Shown here piece after piece: positions 1-37,796 of a stretch of DNA of 37,796 bases. Positions within the stretch are counted from its first letter, which is position 1. Each line of letters opens with the position of its first letter. The notes beneath the pieces were generated by a model, which ran no database searches, was not told the origin of the DNA, and saw only the letters and a program-made list of their open reading frames with translations. Source of the stretch: a virus (Duplodnaviria; Heunggongvirae; Uroviricota; Caudoviricetes); IMG/VR virus record IMGVR_UViG_2897375277_000008, positions 1 to 37,796 of that record; one strand, 5' to 3'. A program made the translations under genes and the position numbers.

Positions 1-1445
1 CTTTCTGGATCCACGTCATTCAGTTTGCACGTCCCGATCAGGCTGTACAGTAGCGCTCCCCGCTCACCACCATGGTCAGAGCCGAAGAACAGGAAGTTTT
101 TACGACCCAGACTGACCGCCCGCAGGGCATTTTCAGCGATGTTGTTGTCGATTTCCACCCAGCCATCGTTCGCATAGTACGTCAGTGCCGGCCACTGGTT
201 AAGTGCGTACGCGAACGCCTTCGCCAACTCTGAGTGTCGCGACAGGGTCTTCATCTTTTCACGCAACCAGCTTTCCAGGGATTTCAACAGCGGTTTCGTT
301 TTTCGCTGACGTTCAGCAAGCCGCTGCTCTGCCGGCATTCCCCTTATATCCGCCTCTATGGCGTACAACTGACCGATCTGCTCCAGGGCTTCTTCCGTCA
401 GTGCTGACGGGATGCGGACGTGCACATCGTGGATCTTTCGGCGGGCATGAGCCCAGCAGGCAGCTTCCGTTATCCCACCATTGCGATACAGCTCGTTGAA
501 CCCGGCGTACGCATCCGCTTGCAGCACACCGCTGAAGCAAGCAAGATGAGTCTGCGGATGGATGCCTTTCCTGTCCGGGCTGTAAGCGAACCACACTGCA
601 GGTGCCAACGCTGACCCGGCATTGCGGTCATCACGAACATACGCCCACAACCGCCCGGTCTTCGTCTTCTTATTACCCGGCAGCAGTACCTGGACCGGGG
701 TATCATCGGCATGGAGTTTGCCGTCAGTCATGACATAGCCATGAAGCGCCTCTTCCAGCGGAGACAGCAGCCGGCAGCATGCATCCACCCAGCCCGACAG
801 CAGTGAACGGCTCAGCTCCACACCTTGCCGGCCGTATATTTCTGACTGGCGATACAGCGGGGTGTGCTCTGCATACTTCGAGGTCAGCACGCGGGCCAGC
901 AGCCCCGGTCCGGCGATACCCCGCTCGATGGGCCGCGAAGGTGCAGGTGCCTGCACGATGGCATCGCACTGAGTACAGGCATGTTTTTCCCGTACCGTCC
1001 GGATAACCCGGAAGGCGCTACGCATCAACTCCAGCTGTTCGGCGGTATCCTCGCCCAGATAGCTCAGTGAACCGCCGCAGTTCGGGCAGCACGGCGCCGC
1101 AGGCAACAGTCGCTTTTCGTCACGGGGTAGTGATTCAGGGAACGGCTTACGGGTGCGGGTCTGACGCAACGGACGCTGTACTGCCGGGTCATACACCCTA
1201 CCAGTCAGCGTATCGCTCTCTTTCTGAAGCCGGTTCAGATCGGCTTCCATTTGTGCGATACGGCGGGAGACTTTTTCGGAACGACTGCCGAAGTTCATCC
1301 GGCGGAGTTTATCCAGCTGCGCCTGCAGATGGTCTATTTCGCGCTCCCGGTTGCTCAGCTTTTCCTGCAGGGCGTGGATCAGCGCTTCCTGTTCGGCCAG
1401 GCGCTGTTTCAGCAGGAAGATGTCGTCAGAAGAGATGTCGTTCAT
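1..1445 (-). CDS. tnpC: IS66-family transposase TnpC, 5' part (481 codons open to window edge)
   Basis: Minus-strand ATG at 1445; my hand translation starts [30 protein letters not shown] and contains CCPNCGG and a DDE-type core. Frame stays open to position 1, which is why it is absent from the ORF track. Confidence 0.8.
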
Positions 1446-1494
1446 AAGCCCGTATTTTACCGGGCTTATTCTGTGACAACCAGGATAAAGAGAT

Positions 1495-1842
1495 TTACAG
1501 CATGGTCAGGGAGGTCAGCAGCCGCTTAGGCTGTCGCCAGTCGATACCTTCCAGCAGCATCGCCAGCTGCGCCTGCGTAAGGAACACTTTGCCATCACGG
1601 GCTGACGGCCAGGCGAAGCGCCCACGCTCCAGCCGTTTGGTCAGGAGGCACAGCCCGTCACCGGTGGACCACAGCAGTTTAACCTGACTGCCGCTGCGGC
1701 CCCGGAAAATGAAAACATGGCCGGACATGGGATCGTCTTTCAGCGCCGTCTGTACTTTCGCAGCCAGGCCGTTGAAGCCATTTCTCATATCGGTGATACC
1801 GGCAACCAGCCAAATTTTGGTCCCGGAAGGTAACGGGATCAT
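1495..1842 (-). CDS. tnpB: IS66 Orf2 (TnpB)
   Basis: 115-aa [33 protein letters not shown]..., recognised as IS66 TnpB; overlaps tnpA by 4 nt. Confidence 0.85.
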
Positions 1843-2240
1843 CGCTTCAGTTCCTGTATCAGCAGAGTCAGGAGCTTTTCGCTGACATTGCCATTGAAGC
1901 GGAGCGTCCCGTGCCGGAACGTTACCTCACAGCTGATACTGAGGGTTTCCGGGTCCTCTGCGAGCGATTCTGGCTGTTCGGCAGCTGCATCGAGAGTCAC
2001 AGGAAGTAGCTGGGGGCTCTCTGAAGAAGGTAATAGCAGCTTTCCCTTGCGCCATTGTTGTCGCCATTTGAACAACAGATTGGCGTTAATGCCATTTTCA
2101 AGAGCAAGTTTTGAGATGGATATCCCGGGTTCACAGGAGGCAGCAACGAGCTGCTGTTTAAATTCGGGAGGATAATTAGGGCAGCCTTTTCGCCTGCCGG
2201 GAGTCACATTTTTCTGCATATCTGACACTTTGGTTCCCAC
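1839..2240 (-). CDS. tnpA: IS66 Orf1 (TnpA)
   Basis: 133-aa ORF MQKNVTPGRRKGCPNYPPEFKQQLVAAS..., recognised as IS66 Orf1; about 70 bp inside the IS end. Confidence 0.85.
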   Translation of the reverse strand: MGTKVSDMQKNVTPGRRKGCPNYPPEFKQQLVAASCEPGISISKLALENGINANLLFKWRQQWRKGKLLLPSSESPQLLPVTLDAAAEQPESLAEDPETLSISCEVTFRHGTLRFNGNVSEKLLTLLIQELKR

Positions 2241-2291
2241 TACTTATTTGGTGGACACCACTTTGTCTAATTCGTCAGATTCTGACCAGAC

Positions 2292-2311
2292 GGTTCAGGC
2301 TGTACGCTTAC
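2292..2311 (-). repeat. IS66 terminal inverted repeat (element end at 2311)
   Basis: Plus strand ggttcaggctgtacgcttac, reverse complement GTAAGCGTACAGCCTGAACC. Confidence 0.7.
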
Positions 2312-2312
2312 T

Positions 2313-2483
2313 TCTGTTCAGAATGCTGTATTTCTGAAAAAACGTGATGCTCTCATCGTCCACACCAATCTACGACTGAACATTCCACTTATAGTTAAGG
2401 ATAAATGGGATGAGGATGAAATCCTGGAGCGGGGTAAAAAGTTGGGGGAAATTGCATTGAAAGTATGGCCAAAACACGATTAA
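2313..2483 (+). other. 3' end of a plus-strand ORF abutting the IS66 end (possible IS-disrupted gene)
   Basis: Frame open from the IS junction to TAA at 2481..2483, ending ...KWDEDEILERGKKLGEIALKVWPKHD; no start codon in window. Confidence 0.25.
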
Positions 2484-2507
2484 TGCAATTAATAAAATAA
2501 TTATAAC

Positions 2508-2527
2508 GGCCTTACATTAGTAAGGCC
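2508..2527 (-). terminator. Hairpin, probable intrinsic terminator for minus-strand transcription
   Basis: Perfect 8-bp stem ggccttac/gtaaggcc with 4-nt loop; on the minus strand it is followed by a U-rich tract. Confidence 0.45.
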
Positions 2528-2578
2528 GCTACTCACTATTAAATCCTTTAATTTGCATCAAGAACAGCAGTGTCAGCC

Positions 2579-2707
2579 CTAGGTCTCGGACTTTGTACCG
2601 CTTATCTTGTCTTCAAAAATCAGCTCGCATCCTGCACAGTTCAGCGCATTACGTTGTAGATCTGTGTTCTGGTCATTTATTGATACGCGTACATAGCCAA
2701 TAAGCAT
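2579..2707 (-). pseudogene. pin: Truncated Gin/Pin/Hin-type serine invertase (N-terminal ~40 codons only)
   Basis: Minus-strand translation MLIGYVRVSINDQNTDLQRNALNCAGCELIFEDKISGTKSET-stop matches the invertase N-terminus including the catalytic-serine region, then hits a stop at codon 43 and no further invertase-like sequence follows. Confidence 0.75.
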
Positions 2708-2733
2708 AGTGGCTCCCTCTGACAAAAGCAGGA

Positions 2734-3312
2734 ATGATGCCATTTGCTCGTTATTTCTGCATTTTCATAAACGTTGGTTTGGGAGAAGGCTCTGCATTAC
2801 CGGTTGGGGTGCCTGTTCCGTGGCCTTCAGCCACTCCGCCAACAGGCTGGCTGAAATGCAATGGTGCGGCTTTTTCTGCTGAAGAATACCCGGAACTGGC
2901 AAAGGCTTACCCGACCAATAAATTGCCTGATTTACGCGGTGAATTTATTCGTGGCTGGGATGATGGACGTGGAGTGGATGCGGGGCGAGCCTTGCTAAGT
3001 CTTCAGAATGACTCTTTTGAAGCTCACAGGCATGAGTCCTTTTTTTACGCGGGTATTTCACGCAATGAAACACCATTAAAAAATCTTCCAAGTTCAGACG
3101 AGATGCTGACTTTAAGTTCCACAACTAATGCCTTGTCCCCGGACAGTATTGATGCCACCAATTCGTTAATTGGTAATGATGATTACAACTGTCTGATTGA
3201 AGGAAATAAAAATAACAAACGAACGGCAACGGGGTTGAGTACCAGTATTGTCGGTGCAGCAGAGACACGCCCACGTAATATTTCATTTAATTACATTGTG
3301 AGGGCTGCATGA
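2734..3312 (+). CDS. Alternative tail-fibre C-terminal cassette (silent in this orientation; no own start)
   Basis: ORF contains PVPWPSATPPTGWLKCNGAAFSAEEYPELAKAYPTNKLPDLRGEFIRGWDDGRG, the classic phage tail-fibre C-terminal motif; real coding starts at the crossover site around 2776. Confidence 0.7.
   Translation: MMPFARYFCIFINVGLGEGSALPVGVPVPWPSATPPTGWLKCNGAAFSAEEYPELAKAYPTNKLPDLRGEFIRGWDDGRGVDAGRALLSLQNDSFEAHRHESFFYAGISRNETPLKNLPSSDEMLTLSSTTNALSPDSIDATNSLIGNDDYNCLIEGNKNNKRTATGLSTSIVGAAETRPRNISFNYIVRAA
2762..2787 (+). other. Inversion crossover site (gix/pix-like), left
   Basis: 26-bp site ttttcataaacgTTggtttgggagaa; right half-site and central TT identical to the reverse complement of the site at 4598..4623. 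Confidence 0.7.
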
Positions 3313-3914
3313 TGTATAACGCCATCTTAAATAATAAATTTATTGCCACAAAGGCAGGAGAGATTACCGTTTATAACTATGACAGTGAGACACGGGAGTA
3401 TATTTCTGCATCAACTGAATATCTTGCTGTGGGTGTCGGTATCCCTGCATATTCCTGTTTAGATGCTCCTGGCACACATAAGGTTGGTTATGCAATCTGC
3501 CGTTCGGCAGATTTAAACTCATGGGAATATGTGCCAGACCATCGCGGTGAAGTTGTCTATAACACCGAAACGGGAGAATCAAAAGAAATCACAGCTCCGG
3601 GTGATTACCCTGAAAATACAACCACTATCGTCCCGTTAACGCCATACGATAAATGGGATGGTGAGAAATGGGTGACAGATACTGAGGCACAGCATAGTGC
3701 CGCAGTAGACGCGGCAGAAGCACAGCGCCAGTCGCTGATTGATGCTGCAATGGCTTCCATCAGTCTGATTCAACTGAAATTACAGGCCGGGCGGAAGCTG
3801 ACGCAGGCAGAAACAACCCGACTTAACGCCGTGCTGGATTACATTGACGCGGTGACGGTAACAGATACCAGCACCACGCCGGATGTCATCTGGCCTGAAC
3901 TGCCGGAGGCGTAG
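3309..3914 (+). CDS. Tail fibre assembly protein (alternative cassette)
   Basis: 201-aa ORF directly after the alternative fibre cassette; C-terminus ...[12 protein letters not shown] is Tfa-like. Confidence 0.7.
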
Positions 3915-4314
3915 GCCATTCAATATCGGGTGCTGTTGAAGTATCAACACGCATCAGCAGCACACGGTATTTCTTCCATTTGGTGAGAGTTGAAGTTTCT
4001 TCATCAGTTGCGATATCAGCATCAACAGCATCCTGACGCCAGGATATTTCACTGTCAGCTTTTTCCCGTAATTGGGATTTTTTAACTTCAGCAATAGCTA
4101 TTAATTCCTTTTTGGTCGGCTGAGGAATATCTATCAGTGCTGGTTTTCCATTCAGTGTTCCAATCTGTTTTCCTGGTAGAATATCCGTAAATAACTTTTT
4201 ATGTTCTTCCTCACTGACTATTACACCATCATCAGGCCACAGACCTGATGCCTCAAATTTTTCTTTCTCCGATATGGGGAAAAAGCCATTTGCTTTAGCG
4301 CTCCATACGTACAT
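3886..4314 (-). CDS. Tail fibre assembly protein (expressed cassette)
   Basis: 142-aa ORF after the tail-fibre gene, C-terminus ...[15 protein letters not shown]; converges on and overlaps the other tfa by 29 bp. Confidence 0.7.
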
Positions 4315-4315
4315 A

Positions 4316-4900
4316 TCAATACCCCACCGCTATAATGTCCACATTAAATCCCCCGGGACCTGCCTGCCAGATGCTGGCCCCTGTTAATGATTTTGTTTGA
4401 TGAACAACCGCCACATTTGCTGGCGATTGTGTTTCAGTTGTTACAGTACCGATATCATTCCAGTTAATTGAGATGGAATAGTTCGTTGTTGTAAACGACC
4501 GGGGGAAAGTTATGTGTCTTACATTGGTGCCGACAGGAAATCCAAGATAAACACGCTGAATTATCATTCCTCCAGGTAACATAACCCAGTTAGCACCTTC
4601 TCCCAAACCAAGGTTTTCGAGAGCTGTTTTCACCGTGCCATCCGATTTGATATCGCCAAACGGATTCTTGCGGCTTAACAGCAGCGCACGAAGCGCGGTA
4701 AGCAACTGGTCGTGCCGCGCCTTCTCCAGGCTGGCACCGGAGGCCTCCACCACGCTGCAGAGTTCTTCCTGCAACATGTCAAAGTAGTCATCATCCAGAT
4801 CGGTGGCAGGCGTGCCTGTCTGGGGGTTACCACGGGTAAAACCGTTCTTACCCGGGCCGAACTTATCCTTCTGCGCGGTTTTCGTGTCTATACGATGCAT
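4316..4900 (-). CDS. Tail fibre protein (constant N-terminus joined to current variable C-terminus)
   Basis: 194-aa ORF between the YmfQ-like gene and tfa; crossover site lies inside it at the LENLGLGEG codons. Confidence 0.65.
4598..4623 (-). other. Inversion crossover site (gix/pix-like), right, inside the tail-fibre gene
   Basis: Plus strand ttctcccaaaccAAggttttcgagag; reverse complement shares TTGGTTTGGGAGAA with the left site; both sites encode the shared GLGEG peptide. Confidence 0.7.
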
Positions 4901-21876: not shown

Positions 21877-22227
21877 TCACTTTAACCGTTCACGGGCCGT
21901 CTTCGCCTTATGACACGGCCAGCACAGACTCTGCAGATTACAGTCGGCATCAGTGCCGCCATGCGCTTTAGGGATGATGTGGTCAACGGTTTTCGCCTCA
22001 CGCACCACACCGGCACGCAGACATAACTGACATAAACCTTTGTCACGCTTCAGGACGCGCACGCGGATAGCGTCCCACTTCGAACCATAACCGCGCTGAT
22101 GACGGGACAGGCCGCGTTGATATTGGATCCATCCTTCACCACGATGTTTAACACAATACCCAGAATTGTCTGTTGTAGTCCCCGCACACCCGTGCTTACG
22201 ACATGCTCGGGGAATTCGTGACGCCAT
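21877..22227 (-). CDS. HNH endonuclease (terminase-associated)
   Basis: 116-aa ORF with Cys clusters and HNH-type motif ...VDHIIPKAHGGTD...CWPCH. Confidence 0.85.
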   Translation of the reverse strand: MASRIPRACRKHGCAGTTTDNSGYCVKHRGEGWIQYQRGLSRHQRGYGSKWDAIRVRVLKRDKGLCQLCLRAGVVREAKTVDHIIPKAHGGTDADCNLQSLCWPCHKAKTARERLK

Positions 22228-22264
22228 ATTATCTCCAATAAAAAACCCGCTAAAGCGGGTCTTG

Positions 22265-22507
22265 TTAGCAACTTATTAACATTGCATGGTTATTTAGCAT
22301 CCAGTCGTTTAACTCATTTTCTGCCCATTCTACGTCTATAAGCACTTTGCATAAATTCGCAGGTTTAAGAAGTTCACCTGCTGACTCCCCTGAAGGCCAA
22401 AAATGCACAGCTACATAATTTTGAGTTACATATGTTTTTTTTATAGTTTGTCGTGTTTCGATTGAGACAATCACATCCGATATTTTACATTTTCTTTTTT
22501 TGACCAA
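22265..22507 (-). CDS. Hypothetical protein
   Basis: 80-aa ORF at the edge of an AT-rich stretch. Confidence 0.3.
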   Translation of the reverse strand: MVKKRKCKISDVIVSIETRQTIKKTYVTQNYVAVHFWPSGESAGELLKPANLCKVLIDVEWAENELNDWMLNNHAMLISC

Positions 22508-23064
22508 AAAATCATGAATTCGCTCCCCAACAGCTTCCTTAAAAATAGTTGAGTTAGCATGTTAATCAAATGTTGCAAAAATAAGTTTAAGTTCGCAATT
22601 TAAAGCCTTAGCTTTTGATATTCCTAATTGCATAGCCTTGTGAGCAGCTAGTATATGATTGCTATTTGCCCTGATTACATACTTTTCCATATTCGCTCTC
22701 CCAAAAAATCAGAGGTATATAATAAGAACACAGAAAAATTTATCAATAAAATCAGCAACAAAAGTAGCTCATCAGCATTACTGACTAAAAGTTCTAATAT
22801 CATTAACAAACGAGTATTGCACTGTACACTTTTTCAAAACGGACAAGTCTTTCAGATACTCACATCGACAACCAATAAAGAACACCAATTGTACTCATCT
22901 CGCGTCAATTCATTGTAGCCTGTGAGCCTATGCTTTCTGATCACAACGCTACCAGTATTATCGCTTCAAGCAGGAATGAACTCCGTATTTTAGCATCCAA
23001 AGGAATTAGCTGTCCCCAAACAGGGTATTAGAACGTAATAATATCACTTTACTAATATAATCAG

Positions 23065-24644: not shown

Positions 24645-25580
24645 ATGCTCTTGGGAGATAATGAACGTTTCATGATCAAATGCCAGGTTACTTTAAAGAA
24701 GTATCCTAATGACGCACCTGACATGCCTTTAGTAAACTGTATTCCTGTTTTAAAAAATCGCTATAACAAAGGAGAAGCTGTTTACGAATTAAACAAAGGA
24801 CGTTCTGTCATAAGATTGCTATCCATAAAAGACGATGAAAATTACCTGAAATTGCTTTTTCAATATATAAATAAAGATGCTTCTGATCCCGCCTTTTCCA
24901 ACATAAAAACTGGTGAAACCAGAATTGAGAAAAAGCAAAATGATGAAGGTATGGGGTACTCTGCTCATGTGCTTATCAAAAAAAGACCGAGCGACTCATC
25001 ATTCCAAGATTGTTATGAGGCAATTTTAGAAGAAGTTCCGGGCATTACCAGAGGTTTATTAGCCCAAGCTTTAACTTATTTCCTGCGAGAAAATAATTTT
25101 TCCTTTATCCGTTCAGGAGGGAAAAAAGAACTTAAGTGCAGACCTATTTTCGACATTGATTTTTTGGCTGCAATAACACTTGAGCAATCTCTATCCACTG
25201 GTTATTTATGTGGACTTACTGCTACTCGTCGCTTTAAAGATAACTCTTTAGATGATGATGGCACAGTAATGGTTGAAGAAGAAACACTAAAGCTATCAAC
25301 AAAAATACGTCGCGGAGAGGGTGCAATTAAGGCGATTAAGTCTGCATATGACAAACTTCGTGGTAGAAAGTATACAATGTTAAGAATTTCTTATAAAGAC
25401 AAAAATAAACGCGTTTCATCAGATCTTGTTTCCATCGGAAAAGAAATGAGCTTACAGGAACTCGCAACAGCACAATTGGCACAACGTGAAAAAGCAGTGT
25501 TGGCATCAACAATTGCCGTTTGCCAAACAGCATTTCACGAAGAACTTCTCGCAAAAATGCAAAACTTTATGTTAAAGTGA
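24645..25580 (+). CDS. Hypothetical 311-aa soluble protein, first gene of the AT-rich insert
   Basis: Long ORF with AAGGAA Shine-Dalgarno; no Walker, HNH or other motif I recognise; codon usage visibly AT-rich; opposite strand to the late operon. Confidence 0.7.
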   Translation: MLLGDNERFMIKCQVTLKKYPNDAPDMPLVNCIPVLKNRYNKGEAVYELNKGRSVIRLLSIKDDENYLKLLFQYINKDASDPAFSNIKTGETRIEKKQNDEGMGYSAHVLIKKRPSDSSFQDCYEAILEEVPGITRGLLAQALTYFLRENNFSFIRSGGKKELKCRPIFDIDFLAAITLEQSLSTGYLCGLTATRRFKDNSLDDDGTVMVEEETLKLSTKIRRGEGAIKAIKSAYDKLRGRKYTMLRISYKDKNKRVSSDLVSIGKEMSLQELATAQLAQREKAVLASTIAVCQTAFHEELLAKMQNFMLK

Positions 25581-25612: not shown

Positions 25613-26182
25613 ATGTATGTTTTATCTAAGGTTTTTACACCTATAGACTACCTACGCATAAAGCATCCTGAGAAGCGATTTTTTGACTGGGTTTTACCCA
25701 TTTTCACTGCTGCAATTATTACTTTATCCATCTATTACTTACCGAAAACCATCTCACTTCTCGGGAAGGATAGTCTTGTGTCTTTAGTAAACGGGATACT
25801 TCAAATACTATCTGGTTTTTACATTGCATCTATGGCTGCAGTTGCAACCTTCAGTAAGGATGGTATGGATGAAGTTATGCATGGCATACCTCCGGTATTA
25901 AAAGGTAAAAAACTTACAAGGCGTAAATTCCTCACTTATCTATTTGGTTATTTAGCGTTTATGAGCATCGCGCTGTATTTCGTTGGAGGAGCACTTCAAC
26001 TAACCAGTGCAAGCATCAAGGAATTACACCTTTCATCATATCCACTAGTGAAATCATTACTTTTGTTTATTTATTTAAGTACCATATGCAACATTATATA
26101 CACAACGGCATTAGGTATGTATTTTATGATAGACAAAATGCATGATGAAAAATCGAAACTTATAATTAAAGATAAAGAATGA
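25613..26182 (+). CDS. Hypothetical 189-aa membrane protein with four predicted TM helices
   Basis: Start set at ATG 25613 (AAGGAGG 5 nt upstream; track ORF begins 25520). Four hydrophobic segments of about 20 to 28 aa and a Lys-rich tail. Confidence 0.65.
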   Translation: MYVLSKVFTPIDYLRIKHPEKRFFDWVLPIFTAAIITLSIYYLPKTISLLGKDSLVSLVNGILQILSGFYIASMAAVATFSKDGMDEVMHGIPPVLKGKKLTRRKFLTYLFGYLAFMSIALYFVGGALQLTSASIKELHLSSYPLVKSLLLFIYLSTICNIIYTTALGMYFMIDKMHDEKSKLIIKDKE

Positions 26183-34420: not shown

Positions 34421-34666
34421 ATGCTTCAAATGTTAACTCTTGAAGAATGGGCTTCTGAAAAATACAGAAGTAATCCTCCAAGCGTTTCCACGTTGCGTCG
34501 TTATGCTAAGCAGAATTTGTTTTGTCCACCGGCAATGAAACAAGGTCGGTTATGGCGAGTGCGTGAGGACGCCGAGTTAGTTGGAGAGCTGGTAACACCA
34601 GTAATTAAGAAAAATGACTCATTACTTTTGCAACGGATTTTGAGTGATGGCAGCCAGACCGCGTAA
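34421..34666 (+). CDS. xis: Excisionase-like protein
   Basis: 81-aa ORF immediately upstream of and overlapping the integrase gene. Confidence 0.6.
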   Translation: MLQMLTLEEWASEKYRSNPPSVSTLRRYAKQNLFCPPAMKQGRLWRVREDAELVGELVTPVIKKNDSLLLQRILSDGSQTA

Positions 34667-35774
34667 GAATAATGTTTCAGTCCCTAACTTATATCCGCTT
34701 TATAGCCGAAAGGTAAATAAAGTCTATTGGCGGTATAAGCATCCAATAACAGGGAAATTCCATGCTTTGGGAACAAACGAAGCTGAAGCTATCGCTATTG
34801 CCACTGAAGCCAATACGCGCCTGGCTGAACAAAGAACCCGGCAGATTCTGGCCATCAGTGACAGGATCGCAACCAGCAAAGGGAAAGCAATCACAACGTC
34901 AACTTGGTTAGATCGCTATCAAGCGATCCAGAATGACAGGCTGCAAAGTGGTGATATAAAGCTCAACACCTACAAGCAGAAAGCCAAACCTGTCTCCTTA
35001 CTTAGAGAACGGGCAGGATTGAAGCTAATTTCAGCTGTTGATGTCCGGGATATTGCACAATTACTTGATGAGTATATTGCCGCTGGGCAACCGAGAATGG
35101 CACAAGTAGTTCGCTCCGTCCTGATTGATGTTTTCAAAGAGGCGCAGCACTACGGAGAAGTACCTCCTGGCTATAACCCTGCATTAGCTACTAAACAGCC
35201 AAGAAGAAAAATTACCCGACAACGGCTGAGCCTCGAAGAATGGAAAAAAATATTCGATATCGCAGATGCCAGCCATCGTTACATGGGAAATGCCATGCTG
35301 CTAGCCTTGGTTACTGGTCAGCGGTTAGGTGATATTTCACGTATGAAATTTAGCGATATTTGGGATGATCATCTGCATGTCATTCAGGAAAAAACCGGGA
35401 GCAAAATCGCCATCCCGCTTTCCCTGCGCCTCAATGCGATTAACTGGAGTTTGCGCGATGTAGTAGCCCGTTGCCGTGACTATGCTGTCAGCCCATACCT
35501 TGTACATTTTTTTCGTACTACTTCACAGGCTGAACGCGGCGCACAGGTTAAAGCCAATACCTTGACTATGAATTTCAGTAAAGCAAGAGATTTAGCAGGA
35601 ATTGACTGGGGTGAAGGTTCTCCCGCAACATTTCATGAACAAAGGTCTTTATCAGAACGTTTGTATAAAGAACAGGGTTTAAATACACAAAAATTACTTG
35701 GTCATAAAACACAACAACAAACCGATCGTTATCATGACGATCGAGGCAAGGGATGGAGCAAAGTAGCGTTGTGA
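34644..35774 (+). CDS. int: Tyrosine integrase, lambda Int family
   Basis: 376-aa ORF; parallels lambda Int as I recall it (…VTGQRLGDISRMKFSDI…, …TFHEQRSLSERLYKEQ…, …LLGHKTQQQTDRYHDDRG…, with the C-terminal catalytic Tyr). Confidence 0.9.
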   Translation: MMAARPRKNNVSVPNLYPLYSRKVNKVYWRYKHPITGKFHALGTNEAEAIAIATEANTRLAEQRTRQILAISDRIATSKGKAITTSTWLDRYQAIQNDRLQSGDIKLNTYKQKAKPVSLLRERAGLKLISAVDVRDIAQLLDEYIAAGQPRMAQVVRSVLIDVFKEAQHYGEVPPGYNPALATKQPRRKITRQRLSLEEWKKIFDIADASHRYMGNAMLLALVTGQRLGDISRMKFSDIWDDHLHVIQEKTGSKIAIPLSLRLNAINWSLRDVVARCRDYAVSPYLVHFFRTTSQAERGAQVKANTLTMNFSKARDLAGIDWGEGSPATFHEQRSLSERLYKEQGLNTQKLLGHKTQQQTDRYHDDRGKGWSKVAL

Positions 35775-35924
35775 AAATTTAACATTAATCTTAGATAAAA
35801 GTCTCTAGTAGTTCTTCAACGTCGAAAGCTAACCACCGAAATCAAATATGATAACGGTGGTCATTCGATACTAAAATGTCAAGCTTTTATCGGTAACAAA
35901 AATTCAATAAAAGTGAGTCGGCCC

Positions 35925-37796
35925 TTAAACCACGATTCCTAAATGGCATGGTTGCTCACCTTCAAGAGAGGCTCTCATTAAGGTCAGGAATTGGGATAAA
36001 TTATTTCTAAAATCAGAACCACTATCTTCCGCCATTCCTGGAGCTAACGAACTTACTAATAAAGCAGGTGTGATAGGTCTTGTTCCGTAAATACTATATT
36101 TCTCATGATGGAAATGACGAGTCTCGCAAGATTCACTTGGATTTACAATCATCAGCCCAGAAGACAAACTTTTTCCAGTATTTTTTTCATGTATACCATG
36201 AAGGTATTTCATAGTGAGTTCGGGGAGGTAATGTGTAAACGCTTTTTTACTGGTAGTATACTTTGCATCTAGGATTAATTGCCTTTGTTCACCCGTAGGC
36301 GTTGAAATGCAAACTATCATGTCTGGTGATCGATTAGCATTAGGACCTTGCTGCCCTCTAGGCTTCAATTTACCTTTCACGGTGTCTAGAGTCCACCCTT
36401 CGGAGTTAATTAGGGAAGCCCCAAAAGAGCTTGCATGATCATGAGTCCAAATTTTCATCTCATAGATAAGCTGTACAGTAAAACCTCCCCAGTCATACTC
36501 AAAATTATTCCGTTCTATTACAGGGCCATTCACTAGCTCAAACTTCATGCCCAATAACCGTACGTTGTCAAAGTGATACTTAATTAAAAATAATAGGTAG
36601 TATTCAAAAAGTTTTGGGATACTTTGTATCGAAAATAGCTCTTCCTGTACGCTCCAATCAGGTGCGCCGAATCTATGCCAAGCAATTATTTTATGAAAAA
36701 CCTTCTGATAATGAAGGTTGTATCTAGCTTTTCTTGTGAATTGCGGAGTGCCAATGATAATATTAGTTACAGGAACCCGCTCATCAAAAGTTCGTTTCAA
36801 ACGCTGTAGATTAATAATCAATTCTTTACATCGTGAAACTTTATTTTTATTTACAACCTTTGCAAACTTACTTAGCTGTGCAAAAAATGAAATATACCCG
36901 GATATGCTCGACTGTTCACGAATTCTGGAAGAAGGATACTCTTCAAGCCGACTCAAGATCTCCGATGCAGCACGCATAAGGGATACTATAAAGCCATGGA
37001 CAACTTGATTTTCATAAATATTCAAATCCTCTTTTAGATGATTTTCTAATATTCGTTCCGATGAATAATATGTGCCATCTAGTTCCAATATTGCGCGGGT
37101 CTGATCATTAACTGGATAAAGGTTGTCAGAGTTTTCTGAAATCCAAGCTAAAGTGGTGTCATCGATAACAGAGTTTTCAGATACTACGACAACTTTAGTC
37201 ACTGGTGTAAGTTTTGCGATTGGCCTGGAATAGATATTTGGAATCTCGGTCATTAACAATAAAACATTTCGTTCGAGTTGTTCAATCAAAAAGCTAACCG
37301 ATCTTTCTCCTTCTTTGAATCCTGCATTTATACGAGTTACTCTAAAAAATGCTGCTAGAGCATCATTATCATGACACGCTAAGAAATCGAGCATTTTTTC
37401 TGCCCGTTCAGCATTCAATTTTTTGGCAAATACTTCAACCGGAGAATATTGTTCAATAATAACTCTTTCGCCAACTCCATCGATTTTCGTTACTATCGAT
37501 AGCTCTGCCATACCATAATAGTTATGAAAAAAGCATTCGTATGTTGATCGATATATAGATTTTGGTTTCCATTCGTAAATCCATAGGCCATCGTATTCTT
37601 TGCTAGAAGTTATTCCTATTTCATTTTCATGAAGACATAAAAAAACATCATCCAACGGAACAGATGCTTCCAGCCTAAACTCTAGAGCTTCGTCTTCCAG
37701 AAAATAAATCTGATTAGAGGACTGAAGACCAAAGGGAGTCAACCCTATCTCTAGACCACTTCTCCTGCCGTTTATTATCTTCGCAGTAAACCTCAT
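35925..37796 (-). CDS. McrC-like PD-(D/E)xK nuclease family protein (start codon at window edge)
   Basis: 623-aa AT-rich ORF; C-terminal ...SPDMIVCISTPTGEQRQLILDAKYT... parallels the McrC catalytic region (…DITIRSSEKILIVDAKYY…) as I recall it. Confidence 0.6.
   Translation of the reverse strand: MRFTAKIINGRRSGLEIGLTPFGLQSSNQIYFLEDEALEFRLEASVPLDDVFLCLHENEIGITSSKEYDGLWIYEWKPKSIYRSTYECFFHNYYGMAELSIVTKIDGVGERVIIEQYSPVEVFAKKLNAERAEKMLDFLACHDNDALAAFFRVTRINAGFKEGERSVSFLIEQLERNVLLLMTEIPNIYSRPIAKLTPVTKVVVVSENSVIDDTTLAWISENSDNLYPVNDQTRAILELDGTYYSSERILENHLKEDLNIYENQVVHGFIVSLMRAASEILSRLEEYPSSRIREQSSISGYISFFAQLSKFAKVVNKNKVSRCKELIINLQRLKRTFDERVPVTNIIIGTPQFTRKARYNLHYQKVFHKIIAWHRFGAPDWSVQEELFSIQSIPKLFEYYLLFLIKYHFDNVRLLGMKFELVNGPVIERNNFEYDWGGFTVQLIYEMKIWTHDHASSFGASLINSEGWTLDTVKGKLKPRGQQGPNANRSPDMIVCISTPTGEQRQLILDAKYTTSKKAFTHYLPELTMKYLHGIHEKNTGKSLSSGLMIVNPSESCETRHFHHEKYSIYGTRPITPALLVSSLAPGMAEDSGSDFRNNLSQFLTLMRASLEGEQPCHLGIVV

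Follow-up and report, generated by a model that had tools for sequence, protein, structure and literature searches.

The gene that closes a 37,796-nucleotide stretch of Caudoviricetes DNA (IMG/VR virus record IMGVR_UViG_2897375277_000008, positions 1 to 37,796; the whole stretch is called the window here) encodes a 623-amino-acid (aa) protein, C, which we judge likely to be the nuclease subunit of a McrBC-derived defence cassette from the NxD, coiled-coil branch (CoCoNuT Type I-like, and nearest to Type I-C), carried as cargo by an e14-like prophage. The gene is the downstream member of a two-gene operon whose upstream member, encoding the motor subunit B, lies beyond base 37796. The pair is rare and poorly annotated, and the branch in which we place it has been catalogued recently and described computationally; across PGAP, Pfam, NCBIfam, PADLOC and PHROGs the motor subunit goes unrecognised and the locus is not called as a defence system.

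The nuclease gene and its product

The open reading frame (ORF) runs for 623 codons without interruption from an ATG at the final base of the window. Its GC content is 37.6%, whereas the window as a whole has 50.9% and the structural-gene block 55.7%; the gene is convergent with intE (34644-35774, +). A preliminary description of the window, made from the sequence alone, had pictured an AT-rich gene adjoining int with its start codon on the last base, and both points hold. The final 2,097 bases match the chromosome of Escherichia coli H22 (NZ_CP120563.1) at 100% identity, and RefSeq annotates the identical coding sequence (CDS) in that strain as a 'DUF2357 domain-containing protein' (WP_099588085.1). 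This allele is present in three of 5,426 complete E. coli genomes, and a tblastn search of 50,697 phage records returned zero matches to the gene. Promoter and terminator scans gave hits at chance level only, with no convincing intrinsic terminator in the spacer between intE and the nuclease gene.

An AlphaFold2 model of C, built on an alignment of 39 homologues with identities down to 26%, has a mean predicted local distance difference test score (pLDDT) of 84.8 and a predicted template modelling score of 0.71; from the N to the C terminus it comprises an all-beta domain, a helical region with a beta insertion, and an alpha/beta nuclease core. When the model was compared with the PDB using Foldseek, four significant matches were obtained, all of McrC type (E 5e-7 to 1e-5): Thermococcus McrC (6ut7_G, E 4.7e-7), a model of the Bacillus subtilis McrC-like protein YdjA (9a5m_A), and two structures of E. 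coli McrC (6hz4_M and 6ut6_G). The fold search alone found McrC; single-sequence and profile searches of PDB sequences with C retrieved none. In Pfam, residues 90-292 match PF09823 (DUF2357; E 2.2e-9) with 37.4 bits, above the gathering cut-off of 23.3, in keeping with the DUF2357 relationship that the preliminary description had raised, and residues 482-516 match PDDEXK_7 at 19.2 bits, slightly under its cut-off of 22.1. Scans of PADLOC, NCBIfam and PHROGs gave no match to C.

The N-terminal domain consists of strands only (residues 2-125, pLDDT mostly 75-90), and the sole fold matches to this beta-sandwich were weak ones to Ig-like KIR domains (Foldseek E 0.03-0.1). It accounts for ~125 of the 275 residues by which C exceeds the 348-aa McrC of E. 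coli K-12, insertions making up the remainder; the protein is thus longer than a canonical McrC, as had been proposed, but the additional length is not a single N-terminal block of ~250 aa.

Judged from its sequence, C has an intact PD-(D/E)xK site, and the signature is catalytically placed. The nuclease domain was aligned by hhalign with K-12 McrC residues 251-319, and profile comparison set ILDAKYT of C on IVDAKYY of McrC (D257/K259), while the McrC segment TD(244)ITI corresponds to PD(492)MIV. Residues E398, P491-D492, D510-A511-K512-Y513 and Y261-E262-N263 are invariant in the alignment of 39 homologues, and K-12 McrC has an LYEF motif at residue 205, upstream of its TD...DAK residues, that resembles the E398 motif of C in position only. 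The parallel that had been drawn between PD...LILDAKY and the McrC catalytic region is therefore borne out, because the acidic and D-x-K residues fall on the McrC catalytic positions and do not vary among the homologues. Searches with C recovered ~120 clusters of homologues, nearly all of ~600-645 aa, and those with a species name all come from Proteobacteria, chiefly Gammaproteobacteria.

The motor subunit encoded upstream

In H22, an 848-aa 'hypothetical protein' (WP_099588086.1, our B) ends 9 nucleotides (nt) upstream of the nuclease ATG, with a Shine-Dalgarno-like AAGGTG within the gap; beyond the B gene come 420 bp and then icd. The exact 623-aa C protein occurs in 118 blocks of public assemblies, and the order icd, 848-aa gene, 623-aa gene, intE, xisE was seen in all eight of the eight places among the matches listed. 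The B gene is uninterrupted in H22 and in seven of these eight places. In assembly GCA_048857885.1 (locus L044, 3446-5991) it is broken into parts of 196 and 595 aa next to an identical nuclease gene, which suggests occasional inactivation of the motor subunit.

B has an AAA+ domain that bears a Walker A motif as well as a Walker B motif, as in the McrB/MoxR/dynein group. Its Walker A (GPPGTGKT, 538-545), Walker B (LLDE, 621-624), T-I-N675-N-D677 and R690 are invariant in 31 sequences, save for the variable middle residue N676. In a profile comparison B matched K-12 McrB over the stretch from Walker A to the signature asparagine (probability 94%, E 8.5e-8), E. coli McrB was the top Foldseek match of the modelled protein in the PDB, and a profile search of PDB sequences likewise retrieved McrB entries. 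The signature itself is NxD, one residue short of the NxxD of McrB (M-N-T-A-D), and distant homologues have N-Q-D. The preliminary description had anticipated a McrB-like GTPase partner upstream; a McrB-like NTPase does lie there, although with NxD and not NxxD, and the use of GTP or of ATP by B would be assigned by analogy.

Upstream of the motor, in the AlphaFold2 model of B, built from 16 sequences, helices at 289-364 (76 residues) and 369-449 (81 residues) make up a hairpin of ~160 residues, coiled-coil in character. A windowed heptad score exceeded 99.5% of shuffles at residues 317-370 and 381-444, and a global test for 3.5-residue periodicity over the helix at 289-364 was not significant. 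Residues 1-210 are beta-rich in the model and form two subdomains, of which the first 105 residues make up a small beta-barrel-like unit. Inspection by eye had given the impression of a cold-shock domain (CSD) in residues 1-75, which hhalign of the N-terminal profile against CspA did not bear out. A homologue search with the N-terminal profile returned two fragments only, and residues 1-235 of 17 family members had zero Pfam matches.

Conservation of the two-gene cassette

Of 36 related loci in Gamma- and Betaproteobacteria, 35 have the B and C genes side by side, a few bases apart, and the one exception is a contig of 1.2 kb. The hosts include Enterobacterales, Pseudomonas, Aeromonas, Vibrionaceae, Marinobacterium, Janthinobacterium and Iodobacter, among others, and the settings range from an e14-like prophage at icd, through an integrase/AlpA element between der and xseA, to chromosomal sites in Aeromonas and Pseudomonas. 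The neighbouring genes differ wholly from one context to another with no other neighbour conserved, and in the contexts examined there was no conserved methyltransferase, helicase or RNase nearby. The pair is a self-contained, mobile two-gene cassette.

An exhaustive HMMER search with B gave at least 678 clusters (50% identity) under E 1e-30, mostly of 820-870 aa and aligned over their full length. Median identity to H22 B was 66% for the motor, 39% for the N-terminal region and 30% for the coiled coil; the domains of C have median identities of 36-44% within the family.

A second E. coli allele of the cassette was found in strain MB50 (CP073949.1; locus L004, 5440-9857), with identities of 40% for C and 58% for the ATPase domain of B. 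It occupies the small element with integrase, AlpA and replication-protein genes between der and xseA, is present in 7 of the 5,426 complete E. coli genomes, and has relatives in Klebsiella pneumoniae on hundreds of contigs.

Relation to known McrBC-type systems

A survey of ~34,000 McrBC systems by Bell, Makarova, Wolf and Koonin (eLife 2024, PMC11090510) described a major branch in which McrB homologues have NxD in place of NxxD. Inside it lies a large clade, the CoCoNuTs, with long coiled-coil fusions, whose CnuC (McrC) has an Ig-like N-terminal beta-sandwich; Types I-A and I-C of the clade consist of CnuB and CnuC alone, and Type I-C has the architecture CSD-YTH-CoCo-McrB plus IG-McrC_N-PD-DxK (PMC11090510). 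Our pair has the NxD signature and a long coiled coil N-terminal to the NTPase in B, and the Ig-like beta-sandwich in C. The combination of NxD with a long coiled coil points to the derived, CoCoNuT-like branch and not to canonical McrBC, and membership of the pair in the NxD coiled-coil branch is well supported by these sequence features.

Compared with K-12 McrBC (6HZ4, 6UT6), the pair shares an AAA+ NTPase with a DUF2357/PD-DxK nuclease, the gene order B then C, and the aligned catalytic D...DxK, and solved structures of McrB and McrC rank at or near the top of the matches. The differences are nonetheless considerable: the pair has NxD, and no DUF3578/ADAM 5-methylcytosine-binding domain was detected; a coiled-coil region of ~200 aa precedes the motor in B; C has 275 aa more, an Ig-like domain included; and identity is very low, with neither protein called McrB or McrC by Pfam or NCBIfam.

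Within the CoCoNuTs, Type I-C is the closest in organisation. Shared with it are a two-gene operon with B first, a B protein that combines beta domains, a long coiled coil and an NxD NTPase, a C protein with an Ig-like beta-sandwich, DUF2357 and a PD-DxK site predicted to be active, and abundance in Gammaproteobacteria; as in that type, CnuA, CnuH, CnuE and CnuD are lacking, and in the contexts examined neither a helicase nor a HEPN partner accompanies the pair. A prophage site at icd between int and attL, on the other hand, does not figure in the description of Type I-C in PMC11090510. Type I-A of E. coli (AZU78436.1/AZU78437.1) also has two genes, a coiled coil and NxD, and its B is collinear with ours from the coiled coil to Walker A and a 'W..(D/E)(I/L)LG(F/Y)YN' motif (25% identity, E 1e-8 in the pairwise comparison). 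Our B lacks the helical insert of that type, however: Walker B and NxD are 51 residues apart, where K-12 McrB has 53. In C, a CxxC motif and with it a zinc ribbon is missing, no CSD-like insertion was identified, and BLASTP showed no similarity to Type I-A CnuC. Type I-A is excluded by the missing Walker B-NxD insert in B and the missing CxxC in C, Type I-B by its separate coiled-coil protein, and Types II and III by their helicase and HEPN partners.

One candidate system in PADLOC, PDC-M26, bears a partial likeness. In B, the coiled coil and the Walker A/B region match PDC-M26A (E 1.8e-15), as they do in B of the other E. coli allele (E 1.1e-23). The match of H22 B is confined to positions 128-440 of the 724 in the model, and with none of the PADLOC models matching C, the B-C locus would escape a PADLOC call. 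No paper mentioning PDC-M26 was found in a literature search.

Several points weigh against assigning the cassette to a Type I-C-like defence system. The CSD and YTH-like identities that Type I-C calls for in B were not confirmed, and the N-terminal region of B had no relative of known function in Pfam, among PDB sequences or in comparison with CspA. The model of B is of moderate quality only (mean pLDDT 66), and B was read from other genomes, outside the record from which the window comes. The resources scanned give little help: PADLOC matches B in part and C not at all, and no family model of NCBIfam or PHROGs fits either protein, apart from a weak generic P-loop match to B. The Type I-C label, reached from architecture and by elimination, is accordingly provisional, and for the Type I branch as a whole defence, hexamer formation, choice of nucleoside triphosphate (NTP) and substrate are all attributed by analogy.

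Prophage setting

The order of genes in K-12 e14 is icd, ymfD, ymfE, lit, intE, xisE ... pinE, mcrA, icd'. H22 has the B-C operon in place of ymfD-ymfE-lit and a GmrSD Type IV enzyme in place of mcrA. The att sites are marked by a 216-bp duplication of the 3′ end of icd, and B starts ~370 bp inside the prophage. The nuclease gene had been placed at the lit position of e14 in the preliminary description, and rightly so, given that the interval between icd and int in K-12 e14 holds ymfD, ymfE and lit. The slot between icd (attL) and intE and the prophage family are the same in both cases, and lit is an abortive-infection defence gene; the proteins are unrelated, and the slot here is filled by a 4.4-kb McrBC-type operon. 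Since B-C replaces ymfD-ymfE-lit, the cassette is prophage cargo in a known defence-gene slot. Prophages of the e14 type thus carry interchangeable defence cargo, with lit or B-C at the int end and mcrA or GmrSD at the pin end.

A position beside the int/att machinery would also suit cargo that is not defensive, be it a remnant that no longer functions or a module that works for the prophage, for instance by excluding competing phages that integrate at icd or through addiction. The broken B gene of one assembly and the rarity of the cassette (3 and 7 of 5,426 complete E. coli genomes for the two alleles) are in line with that account. Both ORFs are nevertheless intact in H22 and in seven of the eight places listed, neither the catalytic nor the NTPase motifs vary in a family of at least 678 clusters, and the same pair is also found in non-phage islands, and we regard decaying or non-defensive cargo as very unlikely.

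Proposed mechanism and substrate

By analogy with McrBC structures (PMC11090510), B would form an NTP-bound hexameric ring, which the DUF2357 region of C, again as in McrBC, would enter and thereby stimulate hydrolysis. The variable N-terminal domains of B, possibly together with the coiled coil, may recognise the nucleic acid of an invader, with spacing, oligomerisation or sensing as possible roles of the coiled-coil hairpin. NTP-driven remodelling or translocation would then bring the substrate to the nuclease of C for cutting at its PD-(D/E)xK site. We take foreign DNA to be the most likely substrate of the pair, because the sole nuclease is a predicted active PD-(D/E)xK enzyme with no RNase or helicase alongside.

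The same architecture can be read in terms of RNA. Bell et al. predicted RNA targeting for CoCoNuTs, and the domain layout of our pair matches their Type I-C; B would on that account bind phage or host RNA, possibly methylated, through OB/CSD-like and YTH-like domains, and the RNA would then be cleaved or sequestered, by C or by the complex, leading to translation shut-off or abortive infection. The small beta-barrel-like unit formed by the first 105 residues of B in the model is compatible with such binding, and a seven-gene Type II-like CoCoNuT locus of Pseudomonas aeruginosa protects against PP7 and LeviOr01, both RNA phages, as well as against the DNA phage MPK7 (bioRxiv 10.64898/2026.04.06.716636). 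That locus was the sole experimental datum for the CoCoNuT branch in our literature search, which found no report of a target, a nucleotide specificity or a role of the coiled coil for Type I CoCoNuT-like systems. With no RNase next to the pair and with a nuclease of the PD-(D/E)xK type, we think it improbable that RNA is the target.

Unlikely to a similar degree is modification-dependent Type IV restriction, in which B would read methylated, hydroxymethylated or glucosylated DNA, with a tie to the N6-adenine methyltransferase of the prophage. The homology to McrB and McrC and the intact nuclease agree with it, as does the Type IV cargo of e14-type prophages (mcrA in K-12, GmrSD in H22), and the N-terminal region of B varies far more than the motor (median identities of 39% and 66%), as would fit a specificity module. 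The coiled coil, the linker and the C-terminal region of B are, however, equally or more variable; B matches no DUF3578/ADAM, SRA, EVE/YTH or other known reader of modified bases; and the NxD clade stands apart from those NxxD enzymes that have been characterised. The methyltransferase gene, for its part, is ~6 kb away, grouped with early genes for replication and regulation, and in other genomes the cassette moves without any methyltransferase. The suggestion in the preliminary description of a modification-based conflict involving the phage adenine methyltransferase thus loses its footing, as neither a match to a modified-base reader nor a travelling methyltransferase was found.

Set beside restriction of foreign DNA, which we prefer, a more speculative and less probable proposal is that the coiled-coil motor of this minimal E. 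coli CoCoNuT senses RNA, such as methylated RNA or RNA from a phage, or another, non-modification feature of infection in place of modified DNA, and that the nuclease is licensed by that signal to degrade nucleic acid in a response resembling abortive infection. If this were true, McrBC-type machines would not be limited to modification-dependent DNA restriction, and this locus would offer the CoCoNuT branch as a whole its simplest tractable model. With its 4.4 kb, two genes, E. coli host, known cargo slot and intact motifs, the cassette is in any event a convenient entry point to the NxD/coiled-coil branch, and we consider it of moderate interest as a compact E. coli model for the open mechanistic question that this branch of McrBC poses.

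Coordinates and other features of the prophage

Table 1. Features of the nuclease gene and its flank in the window (residue numbers refer to C).
Feature	Position	Strand	Basis
McrC/CnuC-like nuclease subunit gene, complete, 623 aa	35925..37796	-	ORF; identical CDS in H22; AlphaFold2; Foldseek
N-terminal beta-sandwich, aa 1-125, Ig-like, not in K-12 McrC	37422..37796	-	AlphaFold2; weak Foldseek
DUF2357 / McrC N-terminal helical region, aa 126-420, beta insertion at ~aa 195-257	36537..37421	-	Pfam, AlphaFold2
PD-(D/E)xK nuclease domain, aa 421-590	36027..36536	-	sub-threshold Pfam; AlphaFold2 alpha/beta core; hhalign
E398 codon, LFEYY helix of nuclease core	36603..36605	-	invariant in 39 homologues
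P491-D492 codons, first of the catalytic acids (corresponds to McrC T243-D244)	36321..36326	-	
D510-A511-K512 codons, (D/E)xK motif (counterpart of McrC D257-A-K259)	36261..36269	-	
Spacer, 150 bp, from the intE stop to that of the convergent nuclease gene; inner edge of the cargo slot	35775..35924	.	

The window cannot be equated with H22 throughout, since this fails for positions 1-4616. Positions 1-2311 hold an IS66-family element (ISEc8-like) that is absent at the H22 site and truncates the GmrSD-family Type IV restriction gene. That gene encodes 629 aa in H22 (full-length match to PADLOC mREase_IV), and positions 2312-2483 of the window keep its last ~170 nt. The segment at 2769-4616, with the tail-fibre C-terminal part and assembly genes, is inverted relative to H22, with alignment overlaps of ~21 bp at both ends, as expected of an invertible host-range switch of the Pin/Gin type; the recombinase gene adjoining it is a 123-nt fragment in the H22 annotation.

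Outside the window, H22 carries a second lambdoid prophage (2900000-2909364) in tandem across a 168-bp fragment of the icd 3′ end, with bet, exo and gam genes and an integrase that has an internal stop, and the icd site has accordingly been used twice in this strain.

Between the two blocks collinear with H22, ~220 bp of the window (~22805-23026) have no alignment to the H22 prophage; the surrounding stretch, upstream of the lysis genes, is low in GC (39.6% over 22001-23000). Two low-GC (~38%) hypothetical ORFs without Pfam matches, at 24645-25580 (+) and 25613-26182 (+) between the holin and Q antiterminator genes, match the PADLOC candidates PDC-M53A (E 3.5e-17) and PDC-M53B (E 1.6e-39, full length), and give the prophage a further candidate defence cassette, of moron-like type.

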